From Myxococcales bacterium (GTDB taxonomy: Bacteria > Myxococcota > UBA727 > JABDBI01), in NCBI GenBank assembly GCA_023248545.1, contig JAHFEF010000001.1, forward strand, positions 150,329 through 214,328: DNA of 64,000 nucleotides, in the 5' to 3' direction. Positions 4,545 through 46,220 of this stretch are shown here, one piece after another (the first letter of the stretch is position 1; every line of letters starts with the position of its first letter). The position numbers were made by a program, and so were the translations under genes. Under the pieces are notes generated by a model, which was not told the origin of the DNA, made no database searches, and worked only from the letters and a program-made list of their open reading frames with translations.

Positions 4545-6331
4545 ATGAAAAAAACTTTACTTGGTTGCGGTCTAGGTTTTGTGATGCTTCTATCGTTTTC
4601 TTGTGGTGGAGGGAATTCTACTTCGCAGGCCTCGGTTGATTCCAATCTTGCGGCGAGGGTCACCAATTCTCAAACAATTGATCAGAACAGTGTTCTAGTG
4701 TCTCAAGTCGGCGGTGTTTTTAAGACGGGCACTGCCTCCTACCTGCAAGGTTTTGACGCGTTTTTGGATCGCGTCAATGGGCACCCAACCATGAAATTCT
4801 CAGAACTTTTGCGAGGCAAGGTGCAGAAATTTCAACCCATCTTCCGCTGCCGCTGACGAGCAGTAAGCCGGTTTCAAGCACACCCAGCACAGCGCCTCCA
4901 GTTGCTTTCGATTGGAGAAGCAACTCTAAGGCCAGTGCGTGCAATATTAACTCGGTATTTAACCAAGGGCAATGTGGGTCTTGCTGGGCGAACTCGTCGG
5001 CCTACACAATAGGTAATGCCTATTGTGTCCAGAAAGGTGTCAACCCAGGCATGTTGTCAGCGCAGTATTTCATTGATTCAGCGATAGGGTATTCTAATTC
5101 TACGGAGGGCATTGCTGTTCCAGGTAGCTTTGGATGTGCGGGTGGATCACCTATTATAGCCATGAGTATTGCCAAAGAAACGCTCGGAGTTCCTACTAAT
5201 TCTTGTCGTGGCTCACTGTTTAACAACAGCGCTGCCGGTTCATTGGCTTGCATGGGAAACGATACGTGTTCGCGTTGCTCTTGTGTTTCCTCAACGGTGG
5301 CTGGTCAGGCCCAACCCCAAGCCCAGGCTGTTGACTATGCAACAGCCGCGACGACTGTATTAGCAGTAGGCGGAGTACCATCAGCATACTTTTTTGGGCT
5401 TCCGGTTGTTTTTGGTTTTGCGCCGCAATCGAATCTTGCGTTGACCGTGCAGACTCAAATTGGAAGTACCACGATCCTCGATGTGGCAAACCTGCCACAA
5501 TCAAGTTCACCAACGCTGTTGTCGGCACCCTATAGTGGGTTCTTGGGCATTGGAATGGCTAATCCAATGGATAATTTTTTTACACTCACAGGCTCTTATT
5601 CGTGTTTTCCTGGAACCGCTGACGTAACGCCTACACCGTGTACCTTCTCCACAACCTGTGACAATGGAACAGCCATATCATCGAATAGCTCAATAAAAGT
5701 AACGTCTGTTCATCAAATCGATAAGACGACACTCGGTGCGATTTCGACATTACAGGCTTCAGCAACTCCTCCCGTCGACACAACGGATCCATCCTATGTT
5801 GGCGCGATTAGTCAGATTAAAACCTTGGTTCAAACATATGGACCGGTCACAGTCGGATTTAGGGAGCCGTTTTCGTTTATGAACTATCGAGGCGGGGTGT
5901 ATAGCTACACAGGCTGGGTACCCTATGCGGTGGATAGTGCACCGGGCAAACCAGTAACTTGTACGGCGTCCACAGCTTCTACCGCGTGCGCCATTAGTGC
6001 GAATTCGGGTCCAAACGTTTATAAAATCTATACCGAATTAAGTAATATCGGAGGTTCACCGCTGCCCACCAATTGTGTCGGTTCGACATCTTGGCAACCC
6101 GTAACGGGTACAGCCGCTGGCATATGCGCGATGCAAGATGTCTTCGTCGGAGGTCACGCGGTGTCGATCGTGGGTTGGGGAACGGATTCGACGAGCAATC
6201 AAAACTATTGGATCGTCGCCAACAATTGGGGTTCAAACTGGGGGGAAGGTGGCTTTGTCAAAATGGCCATGAACGGCATGACGGGAGCTCAAATCTTCTG
6301 GTATGACTTCGTCGCTGCCGCTCAGTTTTAA
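4545..6331 (+). pseudogene. papain-family (C1) cysteine protease, apparently frameshifted
   Basis: Frame 0 (4545-4856) encodes a lipoprotein-like signal peptide and an N-terminal region. Frame +2 is open from 4757 and encodes FDWR...NQGQCGSCWA (catalytic Cys near 4976) with no in-frame ATG, GTG or TTG before 5051. The His (GGHAVSIVGWG) and Asn/Trp (YWIVANNWGSNWGEGGF) motifs follow in the 5051-6331 ORF. Confidence 0.6.
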
Positions 6332-6345
6332 AGAGGGTCGGTCAT

Positions 6346-7338
6346 TTAGTGTGAAGGCGGCTGGCAAGAAGGGCCAAAAGGGCCATTTTGACAGGTGTTG
6401 CCACTCGGGCAAACATTCCGACAGGCGCCGCAGTTATTTGCATCAGTGGCAAGGTTGGCGCAATAAGCTGCCGGTAACCCGTCGACAACGTCTGCACCGC
6501 TGTTGTAGCAGGTAGTTTGATTGGCAGAGCATGTAGTGGCCGGTGTAGCTGTGTTGGCGTGCCACAGGCTAACATTTGTACTGCTGTATATAACTAGATC
6601 GCCATTGTCTTGCAGGACGAGTTTGTCGCCAGGGTTGCCATCTGTGTTTGTTCTAAATCTGGGTATATTATTGACATCATAGACCACAAAATTGCCATCC
6701 GTCTGCATGTATGCGCTTCCGCCCGCGGCGATATTCGTGGTATTGGAGCTCCAAATAGCAGTGCTTGATTGATACAGTGCGAGATTGCCATCAGTTTGCA
6801 TGACTAGCCTATAGACGCCATTTTGGGACGTAAGCGTTGTACCGGAGGCGAGAGATGGCGCCGTCTTGCCTGGCGCGGCCGTGCTTTGGAGGGTTGTAGG
6901 GCTGGCGATTTCCTGGCATGCGCTGTTTGAGCACTGTTGATTATTCGAACACACCTTCCCACAGCTGCCGCAGTTACTGGCGTCAGTGGCAAGGGCAGCG
7001 CAATAGGGGGAGAGAAAAATCGTATTTCCTTCTTGGCCGGCGGGGCAAGTAACTTGACCGGTGGGGCATTGGCAAGAGCCATTCATGCAAGTGGCGCCGC
7101 TCGAGCAAACATTTCCACAGCTGCCGCAGTTATTGGCGTCAGTGGTAAGGTTGGTGCAATAGGAGGCGATTAGGCTGGTGCAAGTAACTTGACCGCTGGG
7201 GCATTGTCCGGCTGTGCCAGTTACCGCAAGGTTCGCATTGCCTGCTCCGTAATCGCTAGACCCACAACCAAATGAAGTGAAGAGGATGCCCGAAAAAACC
7301 AAAACAGTCGCAAATCTACAACAGTGTTCAAAGCTCAT
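6346..7338 (-). CDS. secreted bulb-type (B) lectin domain protein with Stig1-like Cys-rich repeats
   Basis: Signal peptide. Three QxDxNxVxY-like lectin subdomains (MQTDGNLALY, MQTDGNFVVY, LQDNGDLVIY). Four CxxLxTDxNNCGxCGxxC repeats. Confidence 0.75.
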   Translation of the reverse strand: MSFEHCCRFATVLVFSGILFTSFGCGSSDYGAGNANLAVTGTAGQCPSGQVTCTSLIASYCTNLTTDANNCGSCGNVCSSGATCMNGSCQCPTGQVTCPAGQEGNTIFLSPYCAALATDASNCGSCGKVCSNNQQCSNSACQEIASPTTLQSTAAPGKTAPSLASGTTLTSQNGVYRLVMQTDGNLALYQSSTAIWSSNTTNIAAGGSAYMQTDGNFVVYDVNNIPRFRTNTDGNPGDKLVLQDNGDLVIYSSTNVSLWHANTATPATTCSANQTTCYNSGADVVDGLPAAYCANLATDANNCGACRNVCPSGNTCQNGPFGPSCQPPSH

Positions 7339-21938: not shown

Positions 21939-23057
21939 CTAGGCACTCAACTCTGCCAGAAAGTTTGCTGCTGGGCAAACTCGAATTCCGGCATTGTTAA
22001 CGTAGTCTTTCTTGCCTTCGGCGTAGAGTTGATAGGCTTTTGCTTCGGGAAATTTGGCCTTTAAGTAGGCCAGCGGTGGTTCAACGTCTACATCGCTCCA
22101 CTTGCATTCAATGAGATAAATTGGTTTTCTATTTTCTAAAACCACAAAGTCTACTTCCCGGCCATCAATATCCCTGAAATAACGCAGCTCCAAATCACGG
22201 GCAGAGCAATCCTGTTCAAAATGAACCCACTTAAGCAGGTGACAGGCAACCAAATTCTCAAACCGAAATGACGGGGTGGAGACTAATGTCCAATCCATCT
22301 GATAATGTTTTTGTTCTTTCTTCACAGCTCGAATTTTGGGTGCCCCCAACGGAGGAATCCGAAAAATTGAATACAAGCGTTCTAAAATGGCGACCCAACG
22401 CGAAATAGTCTTATGCGAAATCTGCAAATCTTCTCGAAGGGCATTGATCGACAAGGGCGAACCAACGATCTCTGGCAATCGCATTGAGAGCAACTCCAGC
22501 GAGCCAATATCTTGAACCCTTTCAATCGGCGTTAAGTCCTCCTGAATTAATCTGGATCGATATTCCCTGGACCATCGTTTGGCGGCAATTTCACTGCCTC
22601 CCAAAAATGGCTCTGGAAATCCACCCAGCCTCAGCAAATCCATGAGCGTTTTTTGCGACGAAGATTTTAATTCAGCCAATGACAGCGGATGTAATCGAAG
22701 ATAGTGATATCGCCCTTGAAGAGAATCACCAGAAAATCGATAATAATCGAGACGGGCGCTTCCTGTGACCAAAATCTGCTGTGCTTCTGATTTGTCGTCG
22801 TAAAGACCTTTCAGCAGATTGCGCCATAAACGATATTTATGGAGTTCATCGAGAACCCAAAGTGGTCCAACAGGCCATTCGCCTTTCAAAATGCGTTGTC
22901 TTTGGGCGGGGATGTCCCAGTTCAAGTAACCTCCGCCTGCTGCTTTTAGGAGTTCTTTGGCTAGGGTTGTCTTTCCAACCTGCCGCGGGCCGCCCACAAA
23001 AACCATCTTTTTTATCAGGTCGGATTGAATCTGGTTCGTTAAATAGCGTTCTTTCAT
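21939..23057 (-). CDS. AAA+ ATPase with C-terminal DUF4143-like PD-(D/E)xK domain (paralog of 3240..4484)
   Basis: Walker A GGPRQVGKTT. C-terminal REVDFVV...IYLIECKWSD. Confidence 0.7.
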   Translation of the reverse strand: MKERYLTNQIQSDLIKKMVFVGGPRQVGKTTLAKELLKAAGGGYLNWDIPAQRQRILKGEWPVGPLWVLDELHKYRLWRNLLKGLYDDKSEAQQILVTGSARLDYYRFSGDSLQGRYHYLRLHPLSLAELKSSSQKTLMDLLRLGGFPEPFLGGSEIAAKRWSREYRSRLIQEDLTPIERVQDIGSLELLSMRLPEIVGSPLSINALREDLQISHKTISRWVAILERLYSIFRIPPLGAPKIRAVKKEQKHYQMDWTLVSTPSFRFENLVACHLLKWVHFEQDCSARDLELRYFRDIDGREVDFVVLENRKPIYLIECKWSDVDVEPPLAYLKAKFPEAKAYQLYAEGKKDYVNNAGIRVCPAANFLAELSA

Positions 23058-25379: not shown

Positions 25380-26267
25380 GTGAATAAAATATTTCAGCGG
25401 GTGCTTGTATTGACCACTTTGTTTTGCGCGCAGGGGCGCGCTGTCGAGGAGTCTCCTGATGCCATTCGAGAACCCGAAGCAGCATCAGTAGCTGCTGGCC
25501 ACTTTTCCAGCATCGGTGGATCGTTCGGGTTGGAAGAATATACCCGCCATTTTGCTCCCAATGAGCCGAATTATTTTCTGGCTGGATGGCTGTCGCCGCA
25601 GGTCAAATTTCAGATTAGTTTTCGGTACATGATTCTCAATCCCACGGGTTCACTGGTCCAGAAACATGCGTGGATGAAGGGATTTAATTTTGGTTTCTCT
25701 CAAACCTCTTGGATGAATATTACGACGCTGGATGATTCTTTTTTTGCAGACAGCAGCTATCGCCCGGAATTATTTTACTATTTTGAAAACTTTCTGCCAA
25801 CGGCTTCACAACCCGTTCAGCAATTGGGGCTTCAAGGTGGCATCGGCCATGAATCGAATGGTTTTAAACAATCTGACCACCGTTCGCTCAATATTTTTTT
25901 CCTGAGGCCTCTATTCACCTTAGGTAGCCAATCGAAGGGTCTTTTCCTGACGGTTGCCCCTAAGTTTTATTATTATTTTGGGCCGATTGCTTTGAATCCG
26001 GATATCGCAAACTATCGAGGCTATTGCGACTTACGAGTGACCTTGGGCCAACGCGATGGCTTGCAACTGGCGGTATTAGGCCGGGTTGGCAGTCATTTTG
26101 ATAAGGGAAGCCTCCAGCTGGATTTGACCTATGCTCTCACCAAGATCTTCGACGGAAACTTCGATGTTTCGCTGGATGTACAATATTTTGTTGGTTATGG
26201 CGACACCATCCAAACGTACAGAGATTTTAGCAGCATGTTACGCTTTGGTGTTGCGCTGGTGCGTTAA
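25380..26267 (+). CDS. pldA: outer-membrane phospholipase A1 (OMPLA-like)
   Basis: Catalytic motif GHESNG...RSLN. Length fits OMPLA if the GTG at 25380 starts a signal peptide (VNKIFQRVLVLTTLFCA). The exact start is uncertain. Confidence 0.6.
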   Translation: MNKIFQRVLVLTTLFCAQGRAVEESPDAIREPEAASVAAGHFSSIGGSFGLEEYTRHFAPNEPNYFLAGWLSPQVKFQISFRYMILNPTGSLVQKHAWMKGFNFGFSQTSWMNITTLDDSFFADSSYRPELFYYFENFLPTASQPVQQLGLQGGIGHESNGFKQSDHRSLNIFFLRPLFTLGSQSKGLFLTVAPKFYYYFGPIALNPDIANYRGYCDLRVTLGQRDGLQLAVLGRVGSHFDKGSLQLDLTYALTKIFDGNFDVSLDVQYFVGYGDTIQTYRDFSSMLRFGVALVR

Positions 26268-26290
26268 AATTTGGTATCGAAGCTGGGTAA

Positions 26291-26332
26291 GCTATAGCCG
26301 TATTGCTTCTTGCGTAATATCCGCGCCTTTGA
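26291..26332. repeat. 42-bp direct repeat, copy A (upstream of the Cys-rich gene pair)
   Basis: ctatRgccgtattgcttcttgcgtaatatccRcgcctttgaa. Matches copy B at 40 of 42 positions. Confidence 0.7.
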
Positions 26333-26378
26333 AAGCGGTTTAATGGGTTGGTTGCTATATACCCAAACGGAGGTAGGA

Positions 26379-29192
26379 ATGGGCTTCGGATACTGTTGTA
26401 AAATCGCGGCTGTTTTGCTCTTTTCTAGCATCGTTTTCACATCGTTTGGTTGCGGGTCTGGCTATGGGACAGATGCCGGTGGTGGGAATCTCGCAGCGGC
26501 CGGTGGAACAACGATGAAGTTCTTTGCTGAACCTAGGTTCGGTGGTGGGGGGCTCAGTGGCAGTATACCCCGTGACAATAGTGTCTCCGCTTTCACCGTT
26601 TCGCAAATCACCAACACAGGTTTGCTTGATACGAGCTTTACTTGCAATCCTCCGATAACTGCGAGCGGGATTTGGAAATGTACTTCGAAGAATCCACTTG
26701 CAGATGGGGCATATTTGATCACCACAAACTCAACAAGCTCATCCCCTCCACAAGCGCATATTCTGATTTTCACTTCGGCCTACCCAACAGCTGGGTCTGC
26801 CACCAACCCGATTAAATTCATTACGTCAGACACTGCTATGACCAATTATTTGCTGGGATCTATCAGTGGCGATGCATTCGCCAGCCTGGTGGACAATTCG
26901 AAGTCTACCGATCCATTTTTTGATGTCTATTCTGCGTTTAGCCTTTTTGATTCAACCGATATATCTGCCTTCCTTACGAGCAATAGCAAATTATTTACTT
27001 TTTCTTCTCCCGCCTGCTCGTCGACCGAATTGTTTCCGTCCAAACCGTGGAGCCCGCACGGGTCTTTGAGTGCGAGCAGCAAAATTGTACAGCAGTTGGA
27101 CAGCGGGCACCCGGATGAGTTGACGACTGCTGTTGGGTTAAACGGAGCCAACAACAGTTGTACTCTGGGGACCATCTTAGATACCCCCATCAGCAAACTG
27201 AGTTATCAGGTCTATGGAGGGGCTTATAACGAGAGTAGCCTAGCCAGTTCCATTGCCTTATGCCAAGATTATTCCCACCCTGATTTCGGTGTCGTTGCTA
27301 CGACGGTCTTGGATGCAGCAACCCAAACCAATCTCGGTTGGTATGCTCTGAGAAAATCTGATTTGCCAGCGTTTGTATTGGGCGAATTTTTAGAGTCCGG
27401 GACCGCCCCCAGTATCCAATTTCAGAAAACCGACGGCATTACGTTTTCACCCGATAACATCGCCAGAAACATGATTTTGTCCGATCAACCCCAACAAACG
27501 TATCTTGCGGCTGTAAACCCCAATAAAGACATTTGGTTGTTTAGCAAATGTAACAACGGACCTGATCTGCAATTGGGCTATACACCTGCTTCGACAACAG
27601 TTTCACTCACTTTGTCAAAAAATGCTCCCATTTTGAGTTCTGGAAAGAGAGGCCATTTGCAGATGCTGGTTGTAAAAATTACGGACGAGAGATTGAGCGA
27701 TCTGAAAACTGCTTGTTTGGACAACCTGACCAACCTCGCCCAGGTGCCAAGTCACTTCTTCTCCCCAGTTTGGCCCCTTCTGGTACAAGGTTCAGATGAT
27801 GGAAGGAAACAGCTGGCTGAGTGGATTGGATCGTCAAGGTGTTTATGCGGGTCCTTGTGGAGCTACCCTTATCAGCAAGATTCGATTGTGGATGGGCGAG
27901 ATGACTTCAATTTTATCGTGCCAGCCATCGTTCCTGGAGCCCAGGTCAGTTTCACGACCAGCAAGAGTGGGTTCAGTGGCACAACACCCTCGGCCAACTC
28001 ATCGGGTGTCGTGGGTTATGGCTCGACTCAGTTCCAAGCAGGGGACGTGGTGACGTTTACAACCGGTGCTATCCCACTTGGCTCCTGCACAATTCCAGCT
28101 TGCGCAGCCAATCAGCCGATCATTTTTGCAGATGGCGTCTGTCAGGCTTGCCCGCTAGGACAGTTTCAACAAGACAACGTGTGTATACCCTGTACGCCGG
28201 GCCCCCAGGATCCGGCCGCCTATCTGCCCGCAAACTCTAACCAGTGTCAGCTATGTCAGACGGGCTATTATGAGGAAAATAACGTCTGTACATTATGTCC
28301 CGCAGCTTCCTATCTGCCTACCGGAACGAGTGTCTGTATACCCTGCGCTCCCGCCCAAATCCAAAAGAACAATCAGTGCGTAAATTGCGGTTCGGGCAAA
28401 TATGAAGAGGACAACGTTTGTAAGCGCTGCCTTGGTGCAACTTATTTGCCTGCAGGTTCAAATTCCTGTCAACCGTGTCCCAGCGAACAATTCCAAGCAG
28501 AAAATGTTTGTCAATATTGTACAGGTCCGAATTACTTGCCCAAAGGCAGCAATACCTGTCAGGCTTGTGGTCCGGCACAGATTCAAAAAAACCACCAATG
28601 TCAGCAGTGTCCCGAGAACCATTATCAAAGCAATAACGTCTGTGTACACTGTCCTGCCGCGCATACCTTGCCCGCAAACTCTAACGAGTGCCAGCCATGT
28701 CAGCTGGGCTATTATTCAAACAACAATGTCTGCACAGAGTGTCAGGGTACCACCTACTTGCCTTCAGGTTCCAATACTTGCATAGCTTGCGGTGGGGCCA
28801 ATATTGTCATTGCCAACACGTGCACACTTTGTCCCCCTAGAAGTGTAGCCTCGGGCCGTTCTACTTGCACTCCCTGTGGTTATGGACAAATTGAAACTAA
28901 CAATGCTTGTACCACCTGCCCCGCGGGCCAAATAGCGACTTCGCTCAACACATGCGCTGCAGGGCAAACCAATGACGGCTGTGGAAAAAACTCGGACTGC
29001 GCGCCTGACTTCACGTGCCCGGCGACAACGAATCAATCCGGTACCTGCGCGGCATGTCCTTCAGCCCAACACCATTTATCGTTTACTCCAAACAAGTGTA
29101 CGACCGGTCTAACGGGTTCTCCTTGTGATATTCAAGAAGACTGCGGTGGGGCCTTAAAATGTCTTAACAGTATTTGCACCAACGGAAATTAG
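26379..29192 (+). CDS. secreted Cys-rich protein with ephrin-receptor/furin-like repeats
   Basis: N-terminal leader (CCKIAAVLLFSSIVFTSFGCGS) homologous to the lectin gene at 6346..7338. About 10 C-terminal repeats of the form CxxCxxxxYLPxGSNxCxxC. Confidence 0.7.
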   Translation: MGFGYCCKIAAVLLFSSIVFTSFGCGSGYGTDAGGGNLAAAGGTTMKFFAEPRFGGGGLSGSIPRDNSVSAFTVSQITNTGLLDTSFTCNPPITASGIWKCTSKNPLADGAYLITTNSTSSSPPQAHILIFTSAYPTAGSATNPIKFITSDTAMTNYLLGSISGDAFASLVDNSKSTDPFFDVYSAFSLFDSTDISAFLTSNSKLFTFSSPACSSTELFPSKPWSPHGSLSASSKIVQQLDSGHPDELTTAVGLNGANNSCTLGTILDTPISKLSYQVYGGAYNESSLASSIALCQDYSHPDFGVVATTVLDAATQTNLGWYALRKSDLPAFVLGEFLESGTAPSIQFQKTDGITFSPDNIARNMILSDQPQQTYLAAVNPNKDIWLFSKCNNGPDLQLGYTPASTTVSLTLSKNAPILSSGKRGHLQMLVVKITDERLSDLKTACLDNLTNLAQVPSHFFSPVWPLLVQGSDDGRKQLAEWIGSSRCLCGSLWSYPYQQDSIVDGRDDFNFIVPAIVPGAQVSFTTSKSGFSGTTPSANSSGVVGYGSTQFQAGDVVTFTTGAIPLGSCTIPACAANQPIIFADGVCQACPLGQFQQDNVCIPCTPGPQDPAAYLPANSNQCQLCQTGYYEENNVCTLCPAASYLPTGTSVCIPCAPAQIQKNNQCVNCGSGKYEEDNVCKRCLGATYLPAGSNSCQPCPSEQFQAENVCQYCTGPNYLPKGSNTCQACGPAQIQKNHQCQQCPENHYQSNNVCVHCPAAHTLPANSNECQPCQLGYYSNNNVCTECQGTTYLPSGSNTCIACGGANIVIANTCTLCPPRSVASGRSTCTPCGYGQIETNNACTTCPAGQIATSLNTCAAGQTNDGCGKNSDCAPDFTCPATTNQSGTCAACPSAQHHLSFTPNKCTTGLTGSPCDIQEDCGGALKCLNSICTNGN

Positions 29193-29201
29193 CGAGGGCT
29201 T

Positions 29202-30956
29202 ATGCTCAGAATAATCATGATGGTGTTCCTAGTTTGCTCCTGCAGCGATCCCCGTAGTAACGGTGCAAGTGACAATCTAAGCGCTGACAACGTTCCATCC
29301 AACCCATTGAGTTTTTACGCCGAATTTTGGTATGCAACAAGCAACAGCCTATTGCCCGATGATAGCGTTTCGACTGTAACAGTCCAAGCCGTTGACTCCA
29401 AAGGGACGCTTTCCACCGTTTTATTTAACTGTACCAAGAACTTTTATTGTACTTCGAATAATCCATTGCCAGATGGCATCTACCTGGTAACAACCGATTC
29501 AACGAAGTCTAACCCGAAACAAGCCCATTTATTCACCCTGGGGACGGGACATACCACCGCGGGCACTCAATTGGAACCCGTCAAAATTACAACATTTGAT
29601 GAAAACATCAGCACGTACATTCTGGGCTTGATGAAAACCGGAAGTTATGATTTTCAGACGGCTTTTGTTTCCAAAAATACACAGTATGCGAACCCATTGA
29701 GAATGTTTTACGAGGACTATTACTACACCAATTTGAATAATACCCCTACTTTGACATCGTTGGGCACCTATTTGAGTAAAAACCCCGCTGTTTTTTTTGA
29801 ATTTGTTACAGCACCTACGCAGTCTCAGATACAGTGTAGCGAGCTACCCATCGAGGTTCCATTGGGTGTTCCCGGAATTGGCGTCAGTGTTAACATCAAT
29901 CAGACCTCTATTTACAATTTTACAACCGGTTCATCAGATGGAGTAGCACGGGTAACGTATACCAATGCCTTTCCGGGTGATTCAATCGCATTTTTAGTGG
30001 GGGAAAACCCATTGGAAGACTTTTTTGGCAGTGCCATTGCGTGCAGCATCCCTGATTGCCCCATCAACGGGTCGACGGTCAGCGGCTGGGTCACCACAAC
30101 GAGCGGAGCCAGTTGTCAGGTATGTCCAGCTAATAGCATCAGTGTGAAAAACCTCTGCCAAACCTGTGGCCCATTAAGCGACCGAGAAACTAACAACGCT
30201 TGCCATTGTGGTACAGGGCCTGTTTGCGGCGCCACTTTTTCGAATAATTGCACCGATGGCAGTTGTCAGTGCGGAACTGGGCCCCAGTGTGGCAGTCAGA
30301 ATTCTGATGGTTGTACAGGTGGAGCTTGCCTGTGTGGCAGCAATCCAGCGTGCAGCGGCTCCACAGACACTTGTACCCAGGGTGCTTGTTTTTGTGGCAC
30401 TGGCCCCGCGTGCACTGGAACCACAGACACCTGTATCAATGGGTCTTGCGTTTGCAAGGCAAACAACAACCAACCTTGCAACAGCCGCTCGGCCCCAGTT
30501 TGTTCATCGGTAGGCTGTGGGTGTGGTGACAATGGTGTGCGATGTTCCTCTGAAGCATCCTGTTTTATCGTACCTGTGGGTGATAGCCCATCCGGCTATG
30601 CGTGCAGTTGCTCGTCCAGCTCGCAATGCGCCAGCGGATTAACCTGTCAGCTAGATCCTCAGACTGGACTCCAATTCTGTTTGAGCGTTCCCACAGGATG
30701 CGATCTTCGTAACGCGGGCAACTTCCCCAATGGTTGTTCCTGCAAAACCTCATTAGATTGCCAATACCAATACTGCGCCGATTCATCGGGTCAGTCGTTG
30801 ACTGCATGCGCAACCGGGCTTGCGTGTACCTGTCAGACCCAACCTTCCCAACCTTGCACGGGTTGCAGTTGCTATACCAACCCAAACGATTGCACAAACA
30901 GTCCATTGGGGTGTGCTTGGGCGCCATCTCCTTTCAACTTGTGTTCCCCTGGATAA
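29202..30956 (+). CDS. secreted Cys-rich protein, paralog of 26379..29192 at its N-terminal domain
   Basis: The N-terminal domain aligns with the upstream gene (NPLPDGIYLVTTDSTKSNPKQAHLF versus NPLADGAYLITTNSTSSSPPQAHILIF). C-terminal repeats of the form CxCGTGPxCxxxxxxCxxGxC. Confidence 0.7.
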   Translation: MLRIIMMVFLVCSCSDPRSNGASDNLSADNVPSNPLSFYAEFWYATSNSLLPDDSVSTVTVQAVDSKGTLSTVLFNCTKNFYCTSNNPLPDGIYLVTTDSTKSNPKQAHLFTLGTGHTTAGTQLEPVKITTFDENISTYILGLMKTGSYDFQTAFVSKNTQYANPLRMFYEDYYYTNLNNTPTLTSLGTYLSKNPAVFFEFVTAPTQSQIQCSELPIEVPLGVPGIGVSVNINQTSIYNFTTGSSDGVARVTYTNAFPGDSIAFLVGENPLEDFFGSAIACSIPDCPINGSTVSGWVTTTSGASCQVCPANSISVKNLCQTCGPLSDRETNNACHCGTGPVCGATFSNNCTDGSCQCGTGPQCGSQNSDGCTGGACLCGSNPACSGSTDTCTQGACFCGTGPACTGTTDTCINGSCVCKANNNQPCNSRSAPVCSSVGCGCGDNGVRCSSEASCFIVPVGDSPSGYACSCSSSSQCASGLTCQLDPQTGLQFCLSVPTGCDLRNAGNFPNGCSCKTSLDCQYQYCADSSGQSLTACATGLACTCQTQPSQPCTGCSCYTNPNDCTNSPLGCAWAPSPFNLCSPG

Positions 30957-30957
30957 A

Positions 30958-30999
30958 CTATGGCCGTATTGCTTCTTGCGTAATATCCACGCCTTTGAA
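30958..30999. repeat. 42-bp direct repeat, copy B (immediately downstream of the Cys-rich gene pair, overlapping the 3' end of the small membrane-protein gene)
   Basis: Same 42-mer as copy A. Copies lie 4667 bp apart in direct orientation. Confidence 0.7.
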
Positions 31000-31236
31000 G
31001 ATCAGCAGCAAAACGGCCACGGGGAATAGAAAAATCCCCCAGAAATAGAGCCAGAACCAACTGCCGTGATATCGAAAGCCAAATCGCGAGCCGCCATGAA
31101 CAAAGTAGCCTCTTCGGATGAACATCAAGACGCCGAGTGGCAGCAGAATGATCAAGAAAAAGATGAGAAAAAACAAGTTGCCCTCGTAACGGACGGGGGA
31201 TGAAAATTTGACCGTGGTTGTTGAAACGTCGTTCAT
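30958..31236 (-). CDS. small 2-TM membrane protein, translationally coupled to the M8 protease gene
   Basis: 92 aa with two strongly hydrophobic helices. ATG 31236-31234 overlaps the TGA stop of the upstream gene as ATGA. Confidence 0.4.
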   Translation of the reverse strand: MNDVSTTTVKFSSPVRYEGNLFFLIFFLIILLPLGVLMFIRRGYFVHGGSRFGFRYHGSWFWLYFWGIFLFPVAVLLLIFKGVDITQEAIRP

Positions 31237-33074
31237 GGACCGACCATAGCATAGATGGCTGAAACGAGGGCAACCGTGAAGGCCATAATTGTGTCGAAGC
31301 CACGAGCGCTGCTCGGTGCGGGTGGCGGCGGTGCCGGGGGTATGGGTTTTGGGGTCGGCGCAGCCGTTGTGGTGCTGGGCGGTGGTGCCGGTGGCATCGG
31401 AGCAGGTGCTGCCGTGCTGCTGCTTGCGCTCGGCGTTGGACCTGGGATGCTCGACTGAGCGCACAGCGTCGAAGCGGCTGGGCAGTTAATATAACCCTGA
31501 TAGCCAGATTGGATGGGTGATAGATTGGCTGCCCCTGCGCTACCGTCGCTGGGACACGACACAGTTGTTCCTTGAATGTTGAGGAGCAGTGAGCCTGTTC
31601 CAGAACAGGAGTACTTCAAGCAACGGGCGCCTTGTGAATCAGCAACAAAGCCGTTTTGAATCAAGTTGGAGTCGAAGCACCGACTGCTGGAACCGTAGGT
31701 GGCTCCAAAAACATTTTGAGAGTCTGTGGTCGCAGGATCGATGCAAACTCGATTGGAATAGCCAACCACGTGGGGGCAGTAGTCCGCTAAATCAATGGCT
31801 CCTCCTAAATTCGGGTTTGCAAAATATTGTTCGTAGCTAGGGAGAGCCGAACTGTATTGAGCCAGGAAGCACTGTCCGATGGCGGTCAAGTCCTGCGTAC
31901 AAAGCTGGGTTTGACTGTTTTGTGTCCAGCACCATTCACCCAGGTCTCTCACGGCAGCGTCATTGCAAGAGGAGAGTGCGAAGTTGCAGCCTTTGCCTTT
32001 TCCCCACGTGATAGGGTCTGCTTGAGAGTAGTTGGCTCTGTAGTTGCCCGTGTCTTCAAAGAAAGCCAATGTCATGCGGGAAAAATAAGCCCGTGCCGTG
32101 CTAATTTCACCCACCATGGCTTCGGGGACTAAGATTCTTTTTTCCCAGTGTGATCCCGCGGTGCCGCTTCCCCCTTGGTCTTCGATCTCAAGGCCATTGA
32201 GGGTGGGGCAATTGAAATGAGCCCGGGCTTCAGCCAGCACACGCGGTGAGTTAATTTTAGACACCATATGGCTTCGCTCAGAGATCGTGAGTGTCCCCCC
32301 TGCATGAAATGCATCGTCGAGTCCAAGATAGCCCCTTGAACTAAAAAATGGCGCAGAGAAACCCAAAGCATGGGTGGCTTCGTGTTTGGCTGTGACGATA
32401 TCCAAGTCAGTTTGTATAGAATTTTGAGTGTCAGCGTTTGTTAGAACCGATGGAATAAAATTAATTTGTGCGGCAACGGGTCGGCCATTCCCGTCTGTTC
32501 GACAAGCGACTGCCCAGGCCAGGACGTTGGAGTTAGGATCTCTTGCAGGTGCGGCGGAGACATAAATCACCAAATCGGTATTGGGGATGCCTGTGGTGGT
32601 GTGCGCAGCGGGCACCACAATGCCTGGAGAGACACCACAGGTTGAACCTTGTGAAGAGCCCGATATGACCAAATTACCCATGACGGGGTTTACCTGGAGC
32701 GTGTTTTGAAACCAAGCCTGAGCTTGGGCCAGAACGGTGTTTAACAAATATGTCTTTTTACTGGGTGTGAGCACGTCAACACTGCGACAAGCCTGGGTAG
32801 TTCCTTCAAAATTCGTGACGGTTTGTCCAATGCTTTCGCAGTGTGCGCAGGTGCCCGCTGAGCAATCTCCGGGATCAAACACCACGGTGATTCGAATGGG
32901 GGACCAGGTCAGTTGTGGGCCCCCGGGACCGGGGGCCCAGAGGGAGTAGGGGACCCTGATCGTGTCGGGGTCTCGAAATGTGCTCCAGTTTCTGACATCA
33001 TCGTGGGTGCAGGTATAGTTCTGAGCATAAGCGCCAAGCGATCCGAGCAACAAGAGCAACAATTGATAGACCAT
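31233..33074 (-). CDS. leishmanolysin (peptidase M8, GP63)-like secreted zinc metalloprotease
   Basis: Signal peptide. HEATHALGF (HExxH) and a downstream SHWEKR third-ligand motif. Pro-rich linker and C-terminal hydrophobic tail. Confidence 0.8.
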   Translation of the reverse strand: MVYQLLLLLLGSLGAYAQNYTCTHDDVRNWSTFRDPDTIRVPYSLWAPGPGGPQLTWSPIRITVVFDPGDCSAGTCAHCESIGQTVTNFEGTTQACRSVDVLTPSKKTYLLNTVLAQAQAWFQNTLQVNPVMGNLVISGSSQGSTCGVSPGIVVPAAHTTTGIPNTDLVIYVSAAPARDPNSNVLAWAVACRTDGNGRPVAAQINFIPSVLTNADTQNSIQTDLDIVTAKHEATHALGFSAPFFSSRGYLGLDDAFHAGGTLTISERSHMVSKINSPRVLAEARAHFNCPTLNGLEIEDQGGSGTAGSHWEKRILVPEAMVGEISTARAYFSRMTLAFFEDTGNYRANYSQADPITWGKGKGCNFALSSCNDAAVRDLGEWCWTQNSQTQLCTQDLTAIGQCFLAQYSSALPSYEQYFANPNLGGAIDLADYCPHVVGYSNRVCIDPATTDSQNVFGATYGSSSRCFDSNLIQNGFVADSQGARCLKYSCSGTGSLLLNIQGTTVSCPSDGSAGAANLSPIQSGYQGYINCPAASTLCAQSSIPGPTPSASSSTAAPAPMPPAPPPSTTTAAPTPKPIPPAPPPPAPSSARGFDTIMAFTVALVSAIYAMVGP

Positions 33075-33110
33075 GTTGCGGTTAACACCAGAAAATGGTC
33101 GTTTATTCAG

Positions 33111-34250
33111 ATGGCCAAACTCAAAATCAAACTCGTGCGCAATTTGCGCCGGTCTATCTTACGTGGGCATCCCTGGGTTTACAAAGATGCAATGGTTTCT
33201 CCTGGAAATATCGAGAAGGCACAGCTTTGCCAAATATTGGATCAAAAAGGCGAACTCGCGTGGGGATTTTATGACCCACACAGCGTCTTAGCCGTGCGTA
33301 TTTTGAGTGTAGACAAAGCGCCGCCTTCAGAGTTATTTTTTGAAAAGCGATTCGCCCGAGCTTGGGATTTACGGCGAGGAGTTCGCGCTTACGAAACAGA
33401 TGCTTACAGGCTTTTGAATGGCGAGGGTGATGGGTTGCCTGGTTTGGTGTGCGATCTCTATGGGTCTGTGGCTGTGCTGCAATTCGATGGCCAGGGGCCT
33501 CGCGAATTTTGGGACCAGGATTTAATTAGGCGATGGCTTTTGGAAAATACACCCTGTAGAACAGTAGTCGAGAAAGAGCGTCGTCACGCAGAGCAAAAAA
33601 TAGAGTCCCCTGAAGTCCTGATACTAGAAAACAGTGTGAAATTTCGGGTCAACTTAGAGAAGGGCCAGAAGACGGGCTTTTTTTTGGATCAACGAGACAA
33701 TCGAGAGTATGTTCGGCGTTTCACACGCCACAAGAGTGTGTTGAATTTGTTTAGTTATACGGGCGGGTTTTCTGTGTACGCCGGCCTGGGCGGTGCTTCG
33801 CGCGTCGCAAGTTTGGATGTTTCGAAAGGCGCTCTCGAACTGGCTGAACAAAATTGGATGTTAAATGGTCTAGATCCGAGCAAGCATAGTAGTTTATGTG
33901 TCGACGTGTTTGAGTATCTTCGTGAGAACAACGAGTTTTGGGACTGTCTAATTGTCGATCCGCCCTCGATGAGCCATTCGAAAGACCAAAAAGAATTGGC
34001 CATCGCGAAATATGTTGAGCTGTTTACGGCCGCTGCCAAGCGCGTGAAGCCTGGCGGCGATTTATTTCTGAGTTCGTGTTCCAGTCATATTGGTTTCGAT
34101 GATTTTTTCGGGATGATTGAAGAAGCACTATCGGGGGCCAGGAGGCGAGGGCAGGTTTTGCGTGTGTCGGGGCAGGGGCCTGACCACCCCTTCCCACATG
34201 CGTGCCCGGAGCTCAGATACCTCAAGTTTGTGCACTTAGCGCTGGACTAA
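33111..34250 (+). CDS. rlmI: 23S rRNA m5C1962 methyltransferase RlmI-like (PUA-SAM MTase)
   Basis: Start at MAKLKIKLVRNL. DLYGSVAVLQ. SAM-dependent methyltransferase C-terminal half. Confidence 0.8.
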   Translation: MAKLKIKLVRNLRRSILRGHPWVYKDAMVSPGNIEKAQLCQILDQKGELAWGFYDPHSVLAVRILSVDKAPPSELFFEKRFARAWDLRRGVRAYETDAYRLLNGEGDGLPGLVCDLYGSVAVLQFDGQGPREFWDQDLIRRWLLENTPCRTVVEKERRHAEQKIESPEVLILENSVKFRVNLEKGQKTGFFLDQRDNREYVRRFTRHKSVLNLFSYTGGFSVYAGLGGASRVASLDVSKGALELAEQNWMLNGLDPSKHSSLCVDVFEYLRENNEFWDCLIVDPPSMSHSKDQKELAIAKYVELFTAAAKRVKPGGDLFLSSCSSHIGFDDFFGMIEEALSGARRRGQVLRVSGQGPDHPFPHACPELRYLKFVHLALD

Positions 34251-39219: not shown

Positions 39220-39294
39220 GGGCCCGTAGCTCAGCGGTAGAGCATTCGGCTCATAACCGACCGCGCGCAGGTTCGAATCCCGCCGGGCCCACCA
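39220..39294 (+). tRNA. tRNA with CAT anticodon (Met, or Ile2 if lysidinylated)
   Basis: Manual fold. Acceptor GGGCCCG/CGGGCCC, D-arm GCTC-AGCGGTA-GAGC, anticodon loop CTCATAA, T-loop TTCGAAT, 3' CCA encoded. Confidence 0.8.
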
Positions 39295-42972: not shown

Positions 42973-44856
42973 TTACGGCGTGAGATCCAAACATATGGCA
43001 TATACAGTGAAACTCCAGTCATGAGATTCAGCTGAGCCCTCCGCCACTGTTATCGACCAAGTATCAACGTCTGTCGCTGAGGAGGCAGAAGTGTAAAGTT
43101 TGTCCAAGGCAGCACCATCGCTAGTTGCGACCACATTGAACCCAATGACAACCTTGTCCCCCACAGTGGTGCAGTCAACAGATTTTGTTTTAGCGCTGGA
43201 ATTCGTAACAGATGTTGCAGACACGATGTAAAATATTGAAGAGCCTGGTGGGCCTGGTGGGCCTGGCGGGCCTGGTGCGCCTGGTGCTCCTGGTGCGCCC
43301 GGTGCTCCTGGTGCTCCTGGTGCACCCGGTGCTCCTGGTGGGCCAGCGGCGCCGTTACAAACGTATTTCGTCGAATCCACCTCGCCTGCTTCCAAAGTAG
43401 TGTTATTGGCTGTTCCGCTTGGTAAGCCATCGTCTAAGCCTGTATCGACCCTAACTCCACCTGCGGCGCAATTAACCCCGACAGGCTCTGCTGTGGTCTT
43501 AATGAGGGAATTAATTCCATTGGTCCCGTTCGTACCGTTCGTACCGTTCGTACCGTTTGTCCCGTTTGTTCCGGCAGCACCATTGCAAATATATCTTGTC
43601 GAATCCACCTCGCCTGCTTCCAAGATGCTATTATTAGCAGTTCCGCTTGGTAAGCCATCGTCTAAGCCTGTATCGACCCTAACTCCACCTGCGGCGCAAT
43701 TAACCCCGACAGGCTCTGCTGTGGTCTTAATGAGGGAATTAATTCCATTGGTCCCGTTGGTTCCATTAGTACCATTGGTACCGTCGGTACCGTTCGTACC
43801 ATTCGTGCCGTTAGTACCATCGGTCCCGTTGGTTCCATTGGTTCCATTGGTTCCGTTCGTACCGTTTGTCCCGTTGGTTCCAGCAATGCCATCGCAAGTG
43901 TATCTTGCCGAATCCACCTCGCCTGCTTCCAAGATGCTATTATTGGCAGTTCCGCTCGGCGTGCCATCGTCTAAGCCTGTCTCGATCAAAACTCCACCTG
44001 CGGCGCAGTTGGGCCCGGCAGGTTCTACTGCGGTCTCAACGAGGGAATTAACTCCATTGGCACCGTCAGCTCCATTCGTACCATTGGTTCCATCTGTTCC
44101 GTTTGCACCAGCGATGCCATTACAGACATAGGTTGTTGAATCAACCTCAAGTACATCCAGAATAAGGTCATTCACAATCCCGCCAGGTAGACCATCATCT
44201 AGACCTGTCATGACCTTGAATCCACCTGATGCACAGTTAACTCCCGGGTCCTCTATCTCGGTCACGATGAGGGAGCTGATGCCGCTGGAACCAGGAGGGC
44301 CGGCGGGTCCTTGTCCACCACCCGAGGGACCAACACCGGTTGGAGTGTCGTCAATACCATCAGGGATTCCATCATTGTCTGAATCGACGTCACGCGAATC
44401 AAGCAGTCCGTCCCCATCATGATCGACAATGTAGTTCGCGGGGACATAAATATCTCCCGGATCAACCTGGCCATCCCCATCTTGATCCAAGTAACCGAGA
44501 CCCTGTTCTTTTATATCGGGAATGCCATCGGCATCTGAATCTAAATCGTTCCAGTCCGGATACCCATCCCCATCAGTGTCCAATTCTTCGACCTGAGCAA
44601 ACTGAGCAAGTATTTTACTCACCTGGATGACGTTTGAATACTTGCAACCAGATATTCTATGTTCGAGCAAGTCAGAAAGTCCATCTCTGTCAGTGTCCAT
44701 CCTAGAACAGTCAGATCCATCAGGGCTGGATGTAGTTGCATTGGATAAGTCGGGCAAGGAAGCCAGGCTGGTACCGGAACTGCAGGTGGCAGCGAACAGT
44801 GCCACCACCAAGGAACCACCACATAAAACAGCGCTTTGAACCGTTTGGGCGCGCAT
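42973..44856 (-). CDS. secreted collagen-like repeat protein with TSP type-3 repeats
   Basis: Signal peptide. Asp-rich calcium-binding TSP3 repeats ([22 protein letters not shown]). Four tandem ~50-aa modules, each followed by (GTN)n collagen-like tracts. Also a (GAP/GPP)11 collagen triplet block. Confidence 0.75.
43243..44330. repeat. nested tandem repeats inside the collagen-like gene
   Basis: 9-bp units: 11 copies of cctggtgNN at 43243-43342, GTN-coding ggtacgaac-type units at 43523-43575, 43748-43884 and 44055-44110. About 230-300-bp modules repeated 4 times (43367-44330), the first two nearly identical. Confidence 0.8.
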
Positions 44857-44927
44857 AGAGAATCCTCCCATTTAAGGCCTCTTGCCCTGTATCTAATGTC
44901 TCTGGGGGATAATTGCCAAGAGGCGCG

Positions 44928-46220
44928 CTAAAAACGAACGAGCAGCGCGAAATTGATTCTGTTTTCTGACTTGGATAAATCTGGCGTCCAACCTGTTACA
45001 ATGGCATTGGGGTTGCCATTGTTGCCACCCGGCGGGGTGATTCCGCCGGAGCCTGAAAAATACGGTGTGCTGGCTTCACGGTGAATATACTCGAGCCTGA
45101 GTGTCAAAAATTGGCTGGGAAGATAATCAAAAGTCGCCGAAGTGTCCCAGGCCCAAAAATCACCGGCACTGGTATTAAAATAATTAGTTGGAATACTTGA
45201 AGACGCCGTAGCGCCGTTAATTGCAGGAATTACAACCAAATAGCGACCTGGATTTTTAATCGCGCCCCCACCGAGTGTGAGAGCCAATAAATCTTTCAAG
45301 AACCAAAGTCGGTGATAGGCCATGAGGCCTAAGAAATATTGGTTGCTACAAGAAACACCACCGCCCTCTTCACAGCCGGCATCCAGTGTTAAACTCAACG
45401 CTGCTTTGCTCAGCCAAGAACTTGGTTTGTCATAATATTTGTGCTGTAGGCTATTGTCCGTATGTAATCTCACCCGGTTTGGCGTGTTGGCCGTATCGTA
45501 ACCAAAATAACTATTGGATACCAACGACCAATTGCCTGTGGGTCGCCACAAAAATTCAATGCCTAGCCCTGGAGTTTGGTTGAACATACCATAGGATTGC
45601 CAGCCGTTAATCAACCAGTATTCGACTTTAAGTTTGTCCGACGGAAAAGTTTGGACCCGAATGCCATTGAAAAACCAGGGTGTGTTGGCCGACACATAGG
45701 ACATCTGGTAGATCCAATTTTCATAGTTATAATAACTGCATAGGCCAATATACGACATGAAGATTCCAGCGTCGAGATTGATGCCATTCCAAATATCCAG
45801 ATGATACCCAGCATAAGCCTCAGAGACATATCTGTAAGCGTCAGATAAGTTCCATTGGCCTCGGCTGGGACTGGAGTCATTGCGTGGTGTCATGGTCGAG
45901 TAGAGGCCAAACTGTGTCATGAGTCGACCACGGACGTTTTTATAATGAAAGTCGCCGCCAATGCCTAATTGTTGTATTTGAAGTTCGTTGGTGCGTCCGG
46001 TGTTGGTCGAACCCACCAAAGAGTGATCACTTGGATTGGCGAAGTCATAAACAGCATTGCCGTCGAAGATAAATTGGCCTGTAAAGGCCTTGGTTTCCAA
46101 CGGGAATTCTGTTTGGCGCGAATTGCCGTTGAGCCACGAAAAATTAGCAAATGCAAACGGTTCGGCAGTTTCGGCGTGTGTGGCGAAGCTCGCAATGACC
46201 AAGAGGGCTATCATTTTCAT
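44928..46220 (-). CDS. outer-membrane beta-barrel protein (putative porin)
   Basis: Signal peptide, alternating amphipathic strands, C-terminal ...ALLVRF (terminal Phe). Confidence 0.5.
   Translation of the reverse strand: MKMIALLVIASFATHAETAEPFAFANFSWLNGNSRQTEFPLETKAFTGQFIFDGNAVYDFANPSDHSLVGSTNTGRTNELQIQQLGIGGDFHYKNVRGRLMTQFGLYSTMTPRNDSSPSRGQWNLSDAYRYVSEAYAGYHLDIWNGINLDAGIFMSYIGLCSYYNYENWIYQMSYVSANTPWFFNGIRVQTFPSDKLKVEYWLINGWQSYGMFNQTPGLGIEFLWRPTGNWSLVSNSYFGYDTANTPNRVRLHTDNSLQHKYYDKPSSWLSKAALSLTLDAGCEEGGGVSCSNQYFLGLMAYHRLWFLKDLLALTLGGGAIKNPGRYLVVIPAINGATASSSIPTNYFNTSAGDFWAWDTSATFDYLPSQFLTLRLEYIHREASTPYFSGSGGITPPGGNNGNPNAIVTGWTPDLSKSENRINFALLVRF

Follow-up and report, generated by a model that had tools for sequence, protein, structure and literature searches.

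A 51-nt direct repeat bracketing genes for two putative Cys-rich lipoproteins, next to a GP63-type protease gene, in a Myxococcales genome

RESULTS

Two adjacent, paralogous genes of a Myxococcales bacterium are enclosed by two copies of a direct repeat, one of which forms the 3' end of a small gene that overlaps a leishmanolysin-like protease gene. This arrangement raises the question of whether the repeat marks a mobile or inserted cassette and, if not, how the repeat arose and where the genes around it came from. We analyzed the locus within a stretch of 64,000 nt (referred to here as the window). The relevant features are as follows (positions within the window; strand in parentheses).

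6346-7338 (-): third Cys-rich lipoprotein gene, with a leader approximately 60% identical to that of gene A
25380-26267 (+): outer-membrane phospholipase A1 (PLA1) gene; left flank of the block and start of the housekeeping context
26283-26333 (-): repeat copy A; nonfunctional relic of the small gene's end (13 codons and the stop) and of the 9 nt that follow it
26379-29192 (+): gene A, 937 aa, putative lipoprotein; leader MGFGYCCKIAAVLLFSSIVFTSFGC; strong SD (GGAGG) before the ATG
29202-30956 (+): gene B, 584 aa, paralog of A, putative lipoprotein; N-domain as in A
30949-30999 (-): repeat copy B; the small gene's live 3' end, with 42 coding nt (stop included) and a further 9 nt
30958-31236 (-): small membrane-protein gene, 92 aa; two hydrophobic helices; ATG overlapping the M8 stop
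31233-33074 (-): leishmanolysin (GP63, peptidase M8) homolog, 613 aa, full-length and motif-intact

Geometry of the direct repeat

The sequence-only reading of this locus had described a 42-bp direct repeat with 40 of 42 identical positions. The repeat is real, but its length is 51 nt, with 47 of 51 positions identical (92% DNA identity) and an exact 26-nt core. As had been proposed, it brackets the A-B pair exactly, and copy B supplies the final 13 codons of the small gene together with its stop. The 9 nt past this stop coincide with the terminus of gene B, which is read from the opposite strand and has its last Gly codon and TAA within the repeat. Copy A is located 15 nt past the PLA1 stop and 45 nt upstream of the gene A ATG, and its minus-strand reading is H*TAFKGADITQEAIRL*. 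The corresponding peptide (FKGADITQEAIRL*), whose frame is cut off by a stop located two codons upstream, carries the KGxDI..E motif that forms the conserved C terminus of the small-protein family; the earlier interpretation that copy A is what remains of a 3' end of the small gene was thereby borne out. The two copies differ at four positions, two of which alter residues of the small protein. Both edges of the repeat are sharp, i.e., alignments of the flanks scored no better than shuffled controls.

A search for further copies, as the sequence-only reading had suggested, detected the repeat core (up to 3 mismatches) at only two sites in the 64-kb window (versus 0.00 expected in shuffles), and no copy was present between genes A and B. 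The coding pattern of the repeat had zero matches in JGI metagenomes, and its core had zero matches in IMG/VR viral contigs. No promoter or terminator was called at either repeat, no Rfam family was detected at the repeats, and neither copy had a stable RNA fold (fold z-scores, -0.2 to +1.2). A REP-like dispersed repeat or terminator was rejected given the presence of only two copies in 64 kb and the lack of a hairpin or terminator signal. The copy A junction was observed in two independent assemblies (ERZ27280021 and ERZ27276474) and the copy B junction in three (ERZ27280021, ERZ27276474, and SRR14366787).

Genes A and B encode paralogous putative lipoproteins

The products of genes A and B have an N-terminal domain in common (31% protein identity over 171 aa; E = 2e-19) and differ in their Cys-rich tails, as the sequence-only reading had stated; a second matching segment is located just before these tails (E = 1e-5). 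These alignments identify A and B as true paralogs. The A protein is composed of the beta-rich N-domain in common with B, a middle region of approximately 300 aa, and a Cys-rich part with approximately 19 tandem CxxC units (14 to 16 aa each) and two C-terminal GSxC...DC modules. The tail of B consists of CxCGTGPxC units of 20 to 21 aa. Excluding the leader Cys, both proteins contain an even number of Cys residues (58 in A and 52 in B).

Homologs of this pair are extremely rare. A word-indexed search for homologs of A and B matched A alone, and a full HMMER scan added a single genuine A homolog outside this genome (E = 1e-40), namely, P0127, an 840-aa lipoprotein from the MAG GCA_015999675.1. 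P0128 was discarded as a spurious FG-GAP-like match in the same scan. P0127 has a lipobox, and it resembles A in its N-domain, middle region, CxxC units, and GSxC...DC modules at the C terminus. With respect to the lipobox pattern L-[AS]-[GA]-C, the P0127 sequence is canonical (LVSC), whereas those of B (VCSC) and A (SFGC) are noncanonical. Unlike A, P0127 is encoded by a single gene amid genes for heme synthesis, thioredoxin, plsB, and uvrA, and its neighborhood contains no M8 gene, small gene, or repeat. Neither Pfam nor NCBIfam includes a model for the A/B family. Judging from these searches, the family of A and B is bacterial and close to orphan, with a single additional homolog among 1.8 billion representative proteins.

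One of the two Cys-rich repeat families had been labeled as ephrin-receptor/furin-like, a label that is sub-threshold, since the matches of A to Ephrin_rec_like (PF07699; E = 3.5) and TNFR_ELAPOR1_6th (PF23091; E = 0.002; 18.4 bits versus a cutoff of 33.2 bits) were both below threshold. Gene B had no match to the Ephrin_rec_like, GCC2_GCC3, or ELAPOR1-type Pfam models, and PDB sequence searches with both Cys-rich tails were empty. The AF2 models were poor (pLDDT, 37.5 for A and 40.2 for B; 52 to 69 in the A repeat region only). The top Foldseek match of the low-confidence A model against the PDB was ELAPOR1 (9vql; E = 1.1e-3; probability, 0.44; very low TM-score). ELAPOR1 was the best match of A in both Pfam and Foldseek, with all scores below curated or significance thresholds. 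The modeled likeness of A to ELAPOR1, ephrin-receptor-like, and furin-like rods lies in its tandem 14- to 16-aa CxxC units, which are predicted to form stacked beta-hairpins; the predicted build of A and B is one of Ig-like beta domains plus a rod of CxxC beta-hairpins. Unlike the eukaryotic CxxC rods, the repeats of A and B are carried on putative bacterial lipoprotein leaders and on an N-domain without a eukaryotic homolog.

The product of the third Cys-rich lipoprotein gene (6346-7338) carries STIG1-type Cys-rich and bulb-lectin-like modules. Because this gene, 19 kb away, has the same leader type as gene A, we consider the A leader type to be native to this genome. The GC3 and codon usage of A, B, and the M8 gene are typical of the window; of 46 genes, these three rank among those that deviate least. 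Given their typical codon usage and the occurrence of the A leader in a second gene, A and B look native, not acquired. They are putatively lineage-restricted, fast-evolving, disulfide-rich surface or periplasmic lipoproteins.

The neighboring genes encode a GP63-type protease and a small membrane protein

The assignment of the neighboring gene to the M8 (GP63-like) metalloproteases proved correct. Its product matched Pfam Peptidase_M8 (PF01457) with an E value of 3.9e-105 (353 bits versus a cutoff of 21; profile positions 62 to 525 of 529) and aligned over its full length with 1LML (E = 3e-63). In common with leishmanolysin/GP63 (MEROPS M8; PDB 1LML; Bodo saltans GP63), the protein has an HExxH motif (HEATH, residues 231 to 235) and a third His (His309 in GSHWEKR, aligned to GSHIKMR of 1LML), after which comes the Met-turn region, with a Met at position 320. 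The order of its parts is also that of GP63, i.e., signal peptide (uncharged here), M8 domain, Pro/Thr-rich linker, and C-terminal hydrophobic tail. By its motifs, the protein is predicted to be a catalytically intact, GP63-type zinc protease. It differs from bodonid GP63 in being without an extra C-terminal Cys-rich domain and from the GP63 of eukaryotes in the bacterial codon usage of its gene and in the location of that gene on a bacterial chromosome. Its hydrophobic tail would be no GPI signal in a bacterium and, if it has any role, may serve as a membrane anchor.

The M8 protein is 46% identical to a Bodo saltans GP63 and nests among bodonid GP63 sequences in an NJ tree. Bodonid-nested bacterial GP63 sequences were present on two bacterial contigs; the nearest bacterial M8 gene is followed by an ankyrin protein gene, and no small gene is located alongside it. 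The tree and the sequence identity support an old transfer from a kinetoplastid-like eukaryote. An ancestor of this bacterium would have taken up the M8 gene, the codon usage of which would since have fully adapted. No report of GP63 in Bodo endosymbionts was found in the literature.

The ATGA overlap between the M8 stop and the start of the small gene (31233 to 31236) was confirmed. From this overlap, the two genes are predicted to be cotranscribed, and their translation is probably coupled. The small protein contains the GNLFFLI and YHGxWxWL motifs that are invariant in its family (alignment of 9 sequences; hydropathy), and by this alignment it belongs to a rare, conserved, unnamed family for which Pfam and NCBIfam have no model. 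Most relatives of the small gene are located in dapA-small-smpB strings; homologs adjoin smpB, clpX, dapA, or cinA, and in none of the cases an M8 gene. A profile scan of reference genomes detected three distant loci, which had no synteny with the block. The MAG labels of related loci, which are submitters' names, were "Myxococcaceae" and "Ca. Finniella." Of the proposal that the small membrane protein is coupled to the protease, the overlap stands, but a conserved coupling does not; judging from the neighborhoods of the homologs, the M8-small pairing is fortuitous and particular to this locus, with no conserved partnership behind it. An exact look-up of the 92-aa protein returned no record, because the gene callers had skipped the gene.

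Neighborhood of the block and signs of mobility

Housekeeping genes flank the block, which lies in the interval from aconitase-PLA1 to RlmI-DPP-IV. No integrase, recombinase, or transposase turned up when every gene between 19 and 41 kb was scanned with Pfam, and no integrase, excisionase, or relaxase was found in the block or within approximately 10 kb. The segment ends have no terminal inverted repeats, and the A-B cassette had no plasmid or phage match. A transposon or insertion sequence was rejected as a candidate given the lack of a transposase and of terminal inverted repeats and the length of the duplication (51 nt). A tRNA-Met gene at 39220 was considered as an island border, and nothing ties it to the block.

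Exact-protein look-ups of M8, A, and PLA1 showed that every assembly with these genes has the identical arrangement, with no empty-site or presence/absence variant in the assemblies looked up. PLA1 had no relatives in JGI metagenomes. Scans of reference genomes and JGI metagenomes detected neither a close relative of the organism nor the empty site with a single repeat copy that the sequence-only reading had proposed to look for in relatives. There is no evidence of the block being a mobile cassette, and its genes are ordinary residents of this genome.

Origin of the repeat

The sequence-only reading had offered two origins for the repeat, namely, a duplication junction or a pair of attL/attR sites. 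The former is untenable as an explanation of the paralog pair, because the divergence of A and B (31% protein identity) long predates a repeat with 92% DNA identity; the lack of a copy between the two genes points in the same direction.

We consider it somewhat more probable than not that the repeat is the scar of one past recombination event rather than a working site. A 4.6-kb segment with the already old A-B pair would have landed between the PLA1 gene and the terminal part of the small gene; the same event would have duplicated the last 42 nt of the small gene plus 9 nt downstream. The right-hand copy would have stayed joined to the small gene and kept it intact, and the left-hand copy would have been orphaned and then drifted, thus acquiring the four differences. 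The segment would most likely have been inserted by illegitimate or homology-facilitated recombination: a circularized fragment may have entered through a Campbell-type single crossover, or one end may have been anchored and the other joined illegitimately. A target duplication of 51 nt exceeds the lengths of classical transposition, so the mechanism would be unusual whatever its nature. The direction of the event is one that we infer, because the pre-event (empty-site) arrangement was never seen. The location of the lone A homolog, P0127, in an unrelated neighborhood counts in favor of this explanation; it counts against it that copy A could equally be the residue left after the deletion of a second full small gene.

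Known junctions of this general kind include homology-facilitated illegitimate recombination, Campbell-type integration, and attL/attR sites in gene 3' ends (including those of integrase-less, cis-mobilizable elements). The present locus resembles these insertion junctions in the direct repeats of a gene 3' end around an inserted segment and in the intact target gene, and it differs from them in the lack of recombinase genes, a compositional signature, and polymorphism. Unlike islands in gene 3' ends, it has no known target (tRNA or tmRNA gene) and only two native-looking cargo genes.

The most serious alternative, which we nevertheless regard as unlikely, is that A-B was never inserted and that a second small gene, complete at one time and perhaps accompanied by a second M8 gene, stood upstream of A; copy A would be its last 51 nt, the rest having been deleted. 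The small gene has clearly switched neighborhoods within its clade, a sharp edge is expected from any deletion, and the four differences between the copies fit the drift of a dead copy. However, two events would be needed, i.e., a duplication and then a precise deletion that spared the ribosome-binding region of gene A. Moreover, copy A lies a mere 15 nt from the PLA1 stop, with no further trace of a small gene or M8 gene beside it.

It is decidedly improbable that the repeats are attL and attR left by an integrative element, now decayed, which had the small gene's 3' end as its target and brought along a substitute for it, like a cis-mobilizable element whose integrase is gone. The exact bracketing of the segment by direct repeats, the reconstituted 3' end of the target gene, and a length of 42 to 51 nt, which is within the range of att cores, would all be expected of such an element. 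Beyond the repeat itself, however, this second proposal of the sequence-only reading gained no support: there is no integrase, transposase, excisionase, or relaxase nearby, the codon usage is native, the cargo is unmatched in phage and plasmid collections and the repeat core in viral contigs, and no assembly has an empty site or other arrangement. Furthermore, a chromosomal gene elsewhere has an A-type leader peptide, and the sole A homolog is without flanking small-gene fragments.

We assign a very low probability to the retention of the repeat for a function, either RecA-mediated loss or amplification of A-B or a 51-nt antisense segment of the PLA1-A transcript that pairs with the 3' end of the M8-small mRNA and links expression. 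The 26-nt perfect core is close to the minimum for homologous recombination. As there is no terminator between PLA1 and A, plus-strand transcription probably runs through copy A, and the resulting RNA would be complementary to the small-gene mRNA. Against a function, no deletion or amplification variants were seen, the repeat has no structure signal, and two of the four differences alter the peptide, as neutral decay predicts. Finally, a chance match or an assembly artifact has a negligible probability: no match was expected in shuffles, the copy A peptide fits the family motif, and the recurrence of each junction in at least two independent assemblies rules out an artifact of assembly.

The sequence-only reading had regarded the whole block as acquired or rearranged. 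A rearrangement and the acquisition of the M8 gene are both upheld by these analyses, but the acquisition of A and B is not.

DISCUSSION

The repeat that we favor as the scar of a single event provides a tidy case of partial duplication of a gene end through rearrangement. It also carries a caution, namely, that genes between repeats need not be mobile. Genes A and B establish a family of putative Cys-rich lipoproteins with hardly any other members, and the small gene represents a conserved two-TM family that is usually located next to smpB. No major concept is changed by the repeat or by these genes.

The M8 gene is the most interesting part of the locus. In a broader scenario, which we regard as doubtful, the GP63 of a bodonid-like host or prey would have been captured in this bacterium and at least one other. 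Placed here in a native operon with the small gene and beside lineage-specific lipoproteins that mimic eukaryotic Cys-rich receptor rods, it would be part of a surface module for interaction with protists; the repeats would still allow RecA-mediated loss or amplification of A-B and would thereby vary the surface. The presence of bodonid-nested bacterial GP63 on two contigs points to gene flow from kinetoplastid-like eukaryotes to bacteria, and bacterial GP63 is a candidate factor in the interaction between bacteria and protists.

Gene layout and the 51-nt direct repeat

Genes of the block and its flanks, with a third Cys-rich lipoprotein gene of the window
6346-7338, - strand, third Cys-rich lipoprotein (330 aa)
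25380-26267, + strand, outer-membrane phospholipase A1 gene (PLA1), left flank
26379-29192, + strand, gene A (937 aa)
29202-30956, + strand, gene B (584 aa)
30958-31236, - strand, small gene, encoding a two-TM membrane protein (92 aa)
31233-33074, - strand, M8 gene, encoding a leishmanolysin (GP63)-type peptidase (613 aa)
33111-34250, + strand, RlmI-type methyltransferase gene (coordinates as called in the assemblies; our scan began at 33096)
Right of the methyltransferase gene, DPP-IV peptidase gene

The sequence-only reading had placed a direct repeat around genes A and B, and this was borne out. The repeat measures 51 nt (26283-26333, copy A; 30949-30999, copy B; 47/51 identical; exact core, 26 nt), and its edges are sharp, because alignments of the outside flanks score like shuffles. 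The core is present at two sites only in the 64-kb window (≤3 mismatches allowed), where chance would give none. The repeat junctions recur in independent metagenome assemblies with 99.96 to 100% identity to the window (that of copy A in two assemblies, that of copy B in three).

Copy B, as had been proposed, consists of the final 13 codons and stop of the small gene; it further takes in 9 nt with the last Gly codon and TAA of gene B on the opposite strand. The minus strand of copy A encodes FKGADITQEAIRL*, closed by a stop two codons upstream, and nothing gene-like was found upstream of that stop in this reading. Given that the C-terminus of the small-protein family is KGVDI.EE, this peptide agrees with the earlier proposal of a remnant, and copy A is a dead fragment of the 3' end of the small gene. 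The two copies differ at four positions (26287, 26291, 26296, and 26323), of which two would alter small-protein residues, a third lies between the two stop codons, and the last is synonymous in gene B.

The repeat matches no element of a known kind. Neither a sigma-70-like promoter nor an intrinsic terminator was predicted to coincide with it, Rfam gave nothing there (sole match, tRNA-Met at 39220), and RNA folding of both strands of both copies was no more stable than that of shuffles. The core was not found in IMG/VR, nor was a back-translated pattern for KG[VA]DITQEAIR found in JGI metagenomes.

Genes A and B

Genes A and B have in common an N-terminal domain (31% identity over 171 aa; E, 2e-19) and a second segment just ahead of their differing Cys-rich tails, which upholds the initial description and, on these alignments, makes them paralogs. 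Gene A has an extra middle region of ~300 aa. Its tail comprises ~19 CxxC units of 14 to 16 aa each and two GSxC...DC modules; that of B comprises CxCGTGPxC units of 20 to 21 aa each, followed by a less regular Cys-rich stretch. Both leaders are hydrophobic with a Cys at the end, and the Cys residues beyond it are even in number in each protein, consistent with predicted disulfide-bonded exported lipoproteins.

The tails had been called ephrin-receptor/furin-like, an assignment that HMM searches did not sustain: neither protein had a significant Pfam or NCBIfam match (TNFR_ELAPOR1_6th, E of 0.002, below its own cut-off; Ephrin_rec_like, just E of 3.5). Sequence searches of the PDB were empty. 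AlphaFold models built from three sequences were poor (mean pLDDT, 37.5 for A and 40.2 for B); at this low confidence, they have beta-rich N-domains and, in A residues 650 to 860, a regular beta-hairpin stack (pLDDT, 52 to 69). Foldseek of the A model against the PDB placed ELAPOR1 on top (E, 1.1e-3; probability, 0.44), with Ig-like domains next, none of them significant. Two independent weak signals, from Pfam and Foldseek, concur on the label, which is plausible as a resemblance and not a demonstrated membership.

A word-indexed search of 5.8 billion proteins returned A itself only. When 1.8 billion representatives were scanned in full with HMMER, the sole match besides A and B was P0127 (E, 1e-40), encoded in MAG GCA_015999675.1; it is an A-like lipoprotein whose lipobox, LVSC, is canonical. 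Its gene occurs singly amid heme-synthesis, thioredoxin, plsB, and uvrA genes, with no small gene, M8, or PLA1 nearby. Beside it, L019 13339-17888 looks like a plastic region, with an 815-nt non-coding gap, a PDDEXK_2 nuclease gene, and a protein of 1028 aa that has no Pfam hits and carries tandem ~27-aa repeats (…QQRKERIAIQ…EKARGVC…).

Genes A and B look native to the genome. In GC, GC3, and codon usage, both rank with the most typical of the window's 46 genes, and the leader of A (MGFGYCCKIAAVLLFSSIVFTSFGCGS) is ~60% identical to that of the third Cys-rich lipoprotein. The latter has a plant-type STIG1 Cys-rich domain (Pfam E, 2.7e-13, above cut-off) and three bulb-lectin-like QxDGNLVxY motifs (B_lectin E, 4e-7, slightly under cut-off). 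It adjoins a papain-family cysteine protease gene (5051-6331, +; Peptidase_C1, E of 7e-18), a further protease type commoner in eukaryotes. Elsewhere in the window, a 632-aa protein (42973-44871, -) that combines collagen triple-helix repeats with four DUF7151 domains adjoins an OmpL-like beta-barrel porin gene (44928-46220). Defence and toxin-antitoxin genes (AbiEii toxin, two AAA_14/DUF4143 ATPases, and BrnA antitoxin) are scattered at 652-1569 (+), 3240-4484 (+), 21939-23057 (-), and ~21.5 kb.

The small gene

Relatives of the 92-aa protein were found in eight metagenome protein clusters and three reference-MAG loci (47 to 66% identity). The family is rare yet well conserved; its invariant motifs are GNLFFLI and YHGxWxWL, and the protein has two hydrophobic helices. 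In the 'Finniella'-labelled group (L004/L005, L011, and L012), the gene lies within an SLT / dapA-small-smpB-rsmI-yraN-BON string, complete in the longer loci L004 and L011; the short contig L007 carries dapA-small-smpB. In L004, L005, L007, L011, and L012, it is directly upstream of smpB, a position that may hint at a housekeeping role. A different metagenome contig carries it in convergent orientation to clpX, and in L010 it has cell-wall genes on one side and a cinA-like gene on the other. M8, A, B, and PLA1 were not found near any of these relatives. The small gene of the window is a conserved gene displaced from its usual context.

The small protein had been described as coupled to M8. 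The ATGA overlap of the two genes is real and would give co-transcription and probably coupled translation, but the coupling is not conserved, the relatives lying beside dapA/smpB, clpX, or cinA-like genes. On the other side of M8, its start codon and the divergent one of the RlmI-like gene are just 36 nt apart (33075-33110), and therefore each gene's promoter must sit within the other's coding region; a promoter-like site lies inside M8 (32992-33019, +).

A GP63-type peptidase in bacteria

The assignment of the adjoining protease to the M8 (GP63-like) family proved correct (Pfam Peptidase_M8, E of 3.9e-105; residues 55 to 539 aligned with Leishmania GP63 [1LML], E of 3e-63), with HEATH at 231 to 235 and the third His at 309. 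Its named homologs are all from eukaryotes, the best being a Bodo saltans GP63 (46% identity; E, 4e-133). The closest homolog overall (57%) comes from a contig that is clearly bacterial, bearing ftsZ, skp, fabZ, murJ, and rpsA. There (L015 10001-14045), M8 is followed by a 13-nt gap and a 738-aa ankyrin-repeat protein, with no small gene. Lipase_3 and LNS2/PITM-like genes are also present on this contig, whose content suggests a eukaryote-associated bacterium. Another homolog (44%) is on a eukaryote-like contig (GC, 60%). In a further metagenomic homolog (P0126), an Ephrin_rec_like (PF07699) domain is fused to the protease; therefore, M8 and such a Cys-rich repeat do co-occur in some proteins elsewhere.

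The two bacterial and the bodonid proteins have a common architecture of uncharged signal peptide, M8 domain, Pro/Thr-rich linker, and C-terminal hydrophobic tail. In a neighbor-joining tree (without bootstrap), the two bacterial proteins pair and are nested within the bodonid group, with trypanosomatids, amoebozoans, plants, and animals outside it. The window's M8 has native codon usage. From these sequences we infer that bacteria long ago acquired the gene from a kinetoplastid-like eukaryote; a literature search found no report of such a transfer.

Origin of the block

Our conclusion is that one recombination event left the repeat as its scar. A single recombination would have brought the A-B segment to its present place, with PLA1 on one side and the small gene on the other, duplicating 51 nt of target; the frame of gene B would then run into duplicated sequence to reach its stop, or else the B/repeat junction is original. 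Insertion with target duplication, homology-anchored illegitimate insertion, and deletion of a second small-gene copy are alike tenable, because no close relative of the source organism was found in the collections searched.

Other origins fared less well. The block does not look like a mobile cassette: Pfam scans of 19 to 41 kb of the window gave housekeeping genes only, with no recombinase or transposase, the remainder holds defence and secreted-protein genes with no recombinase, the whole cassette had no blastn match among plasmids or phages, and A and B have native codon usage. The repeat is not a duplication junction of A and B, because their divergence far exceeds that of the repeat copies and no copy lies between them. 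A generic REP or terminator element is disfavored by the two copies only in the window and the lack of an intrinsic terminator.

Of the acquired or rearranged module put forward in the sequence-only reading, rearrangement stands; acquisition is supported for M8 but not for A and B, given their codon usage and the leader in common with the 6346-7338 protein. In the block, a native orphan lipoprotein pair, a displaced small gene, and an anciently acquired GP63 are juxtaposed, and the bacterial GP63 (of moderate interest) is more noteworthy than the repeat (moderate to low).
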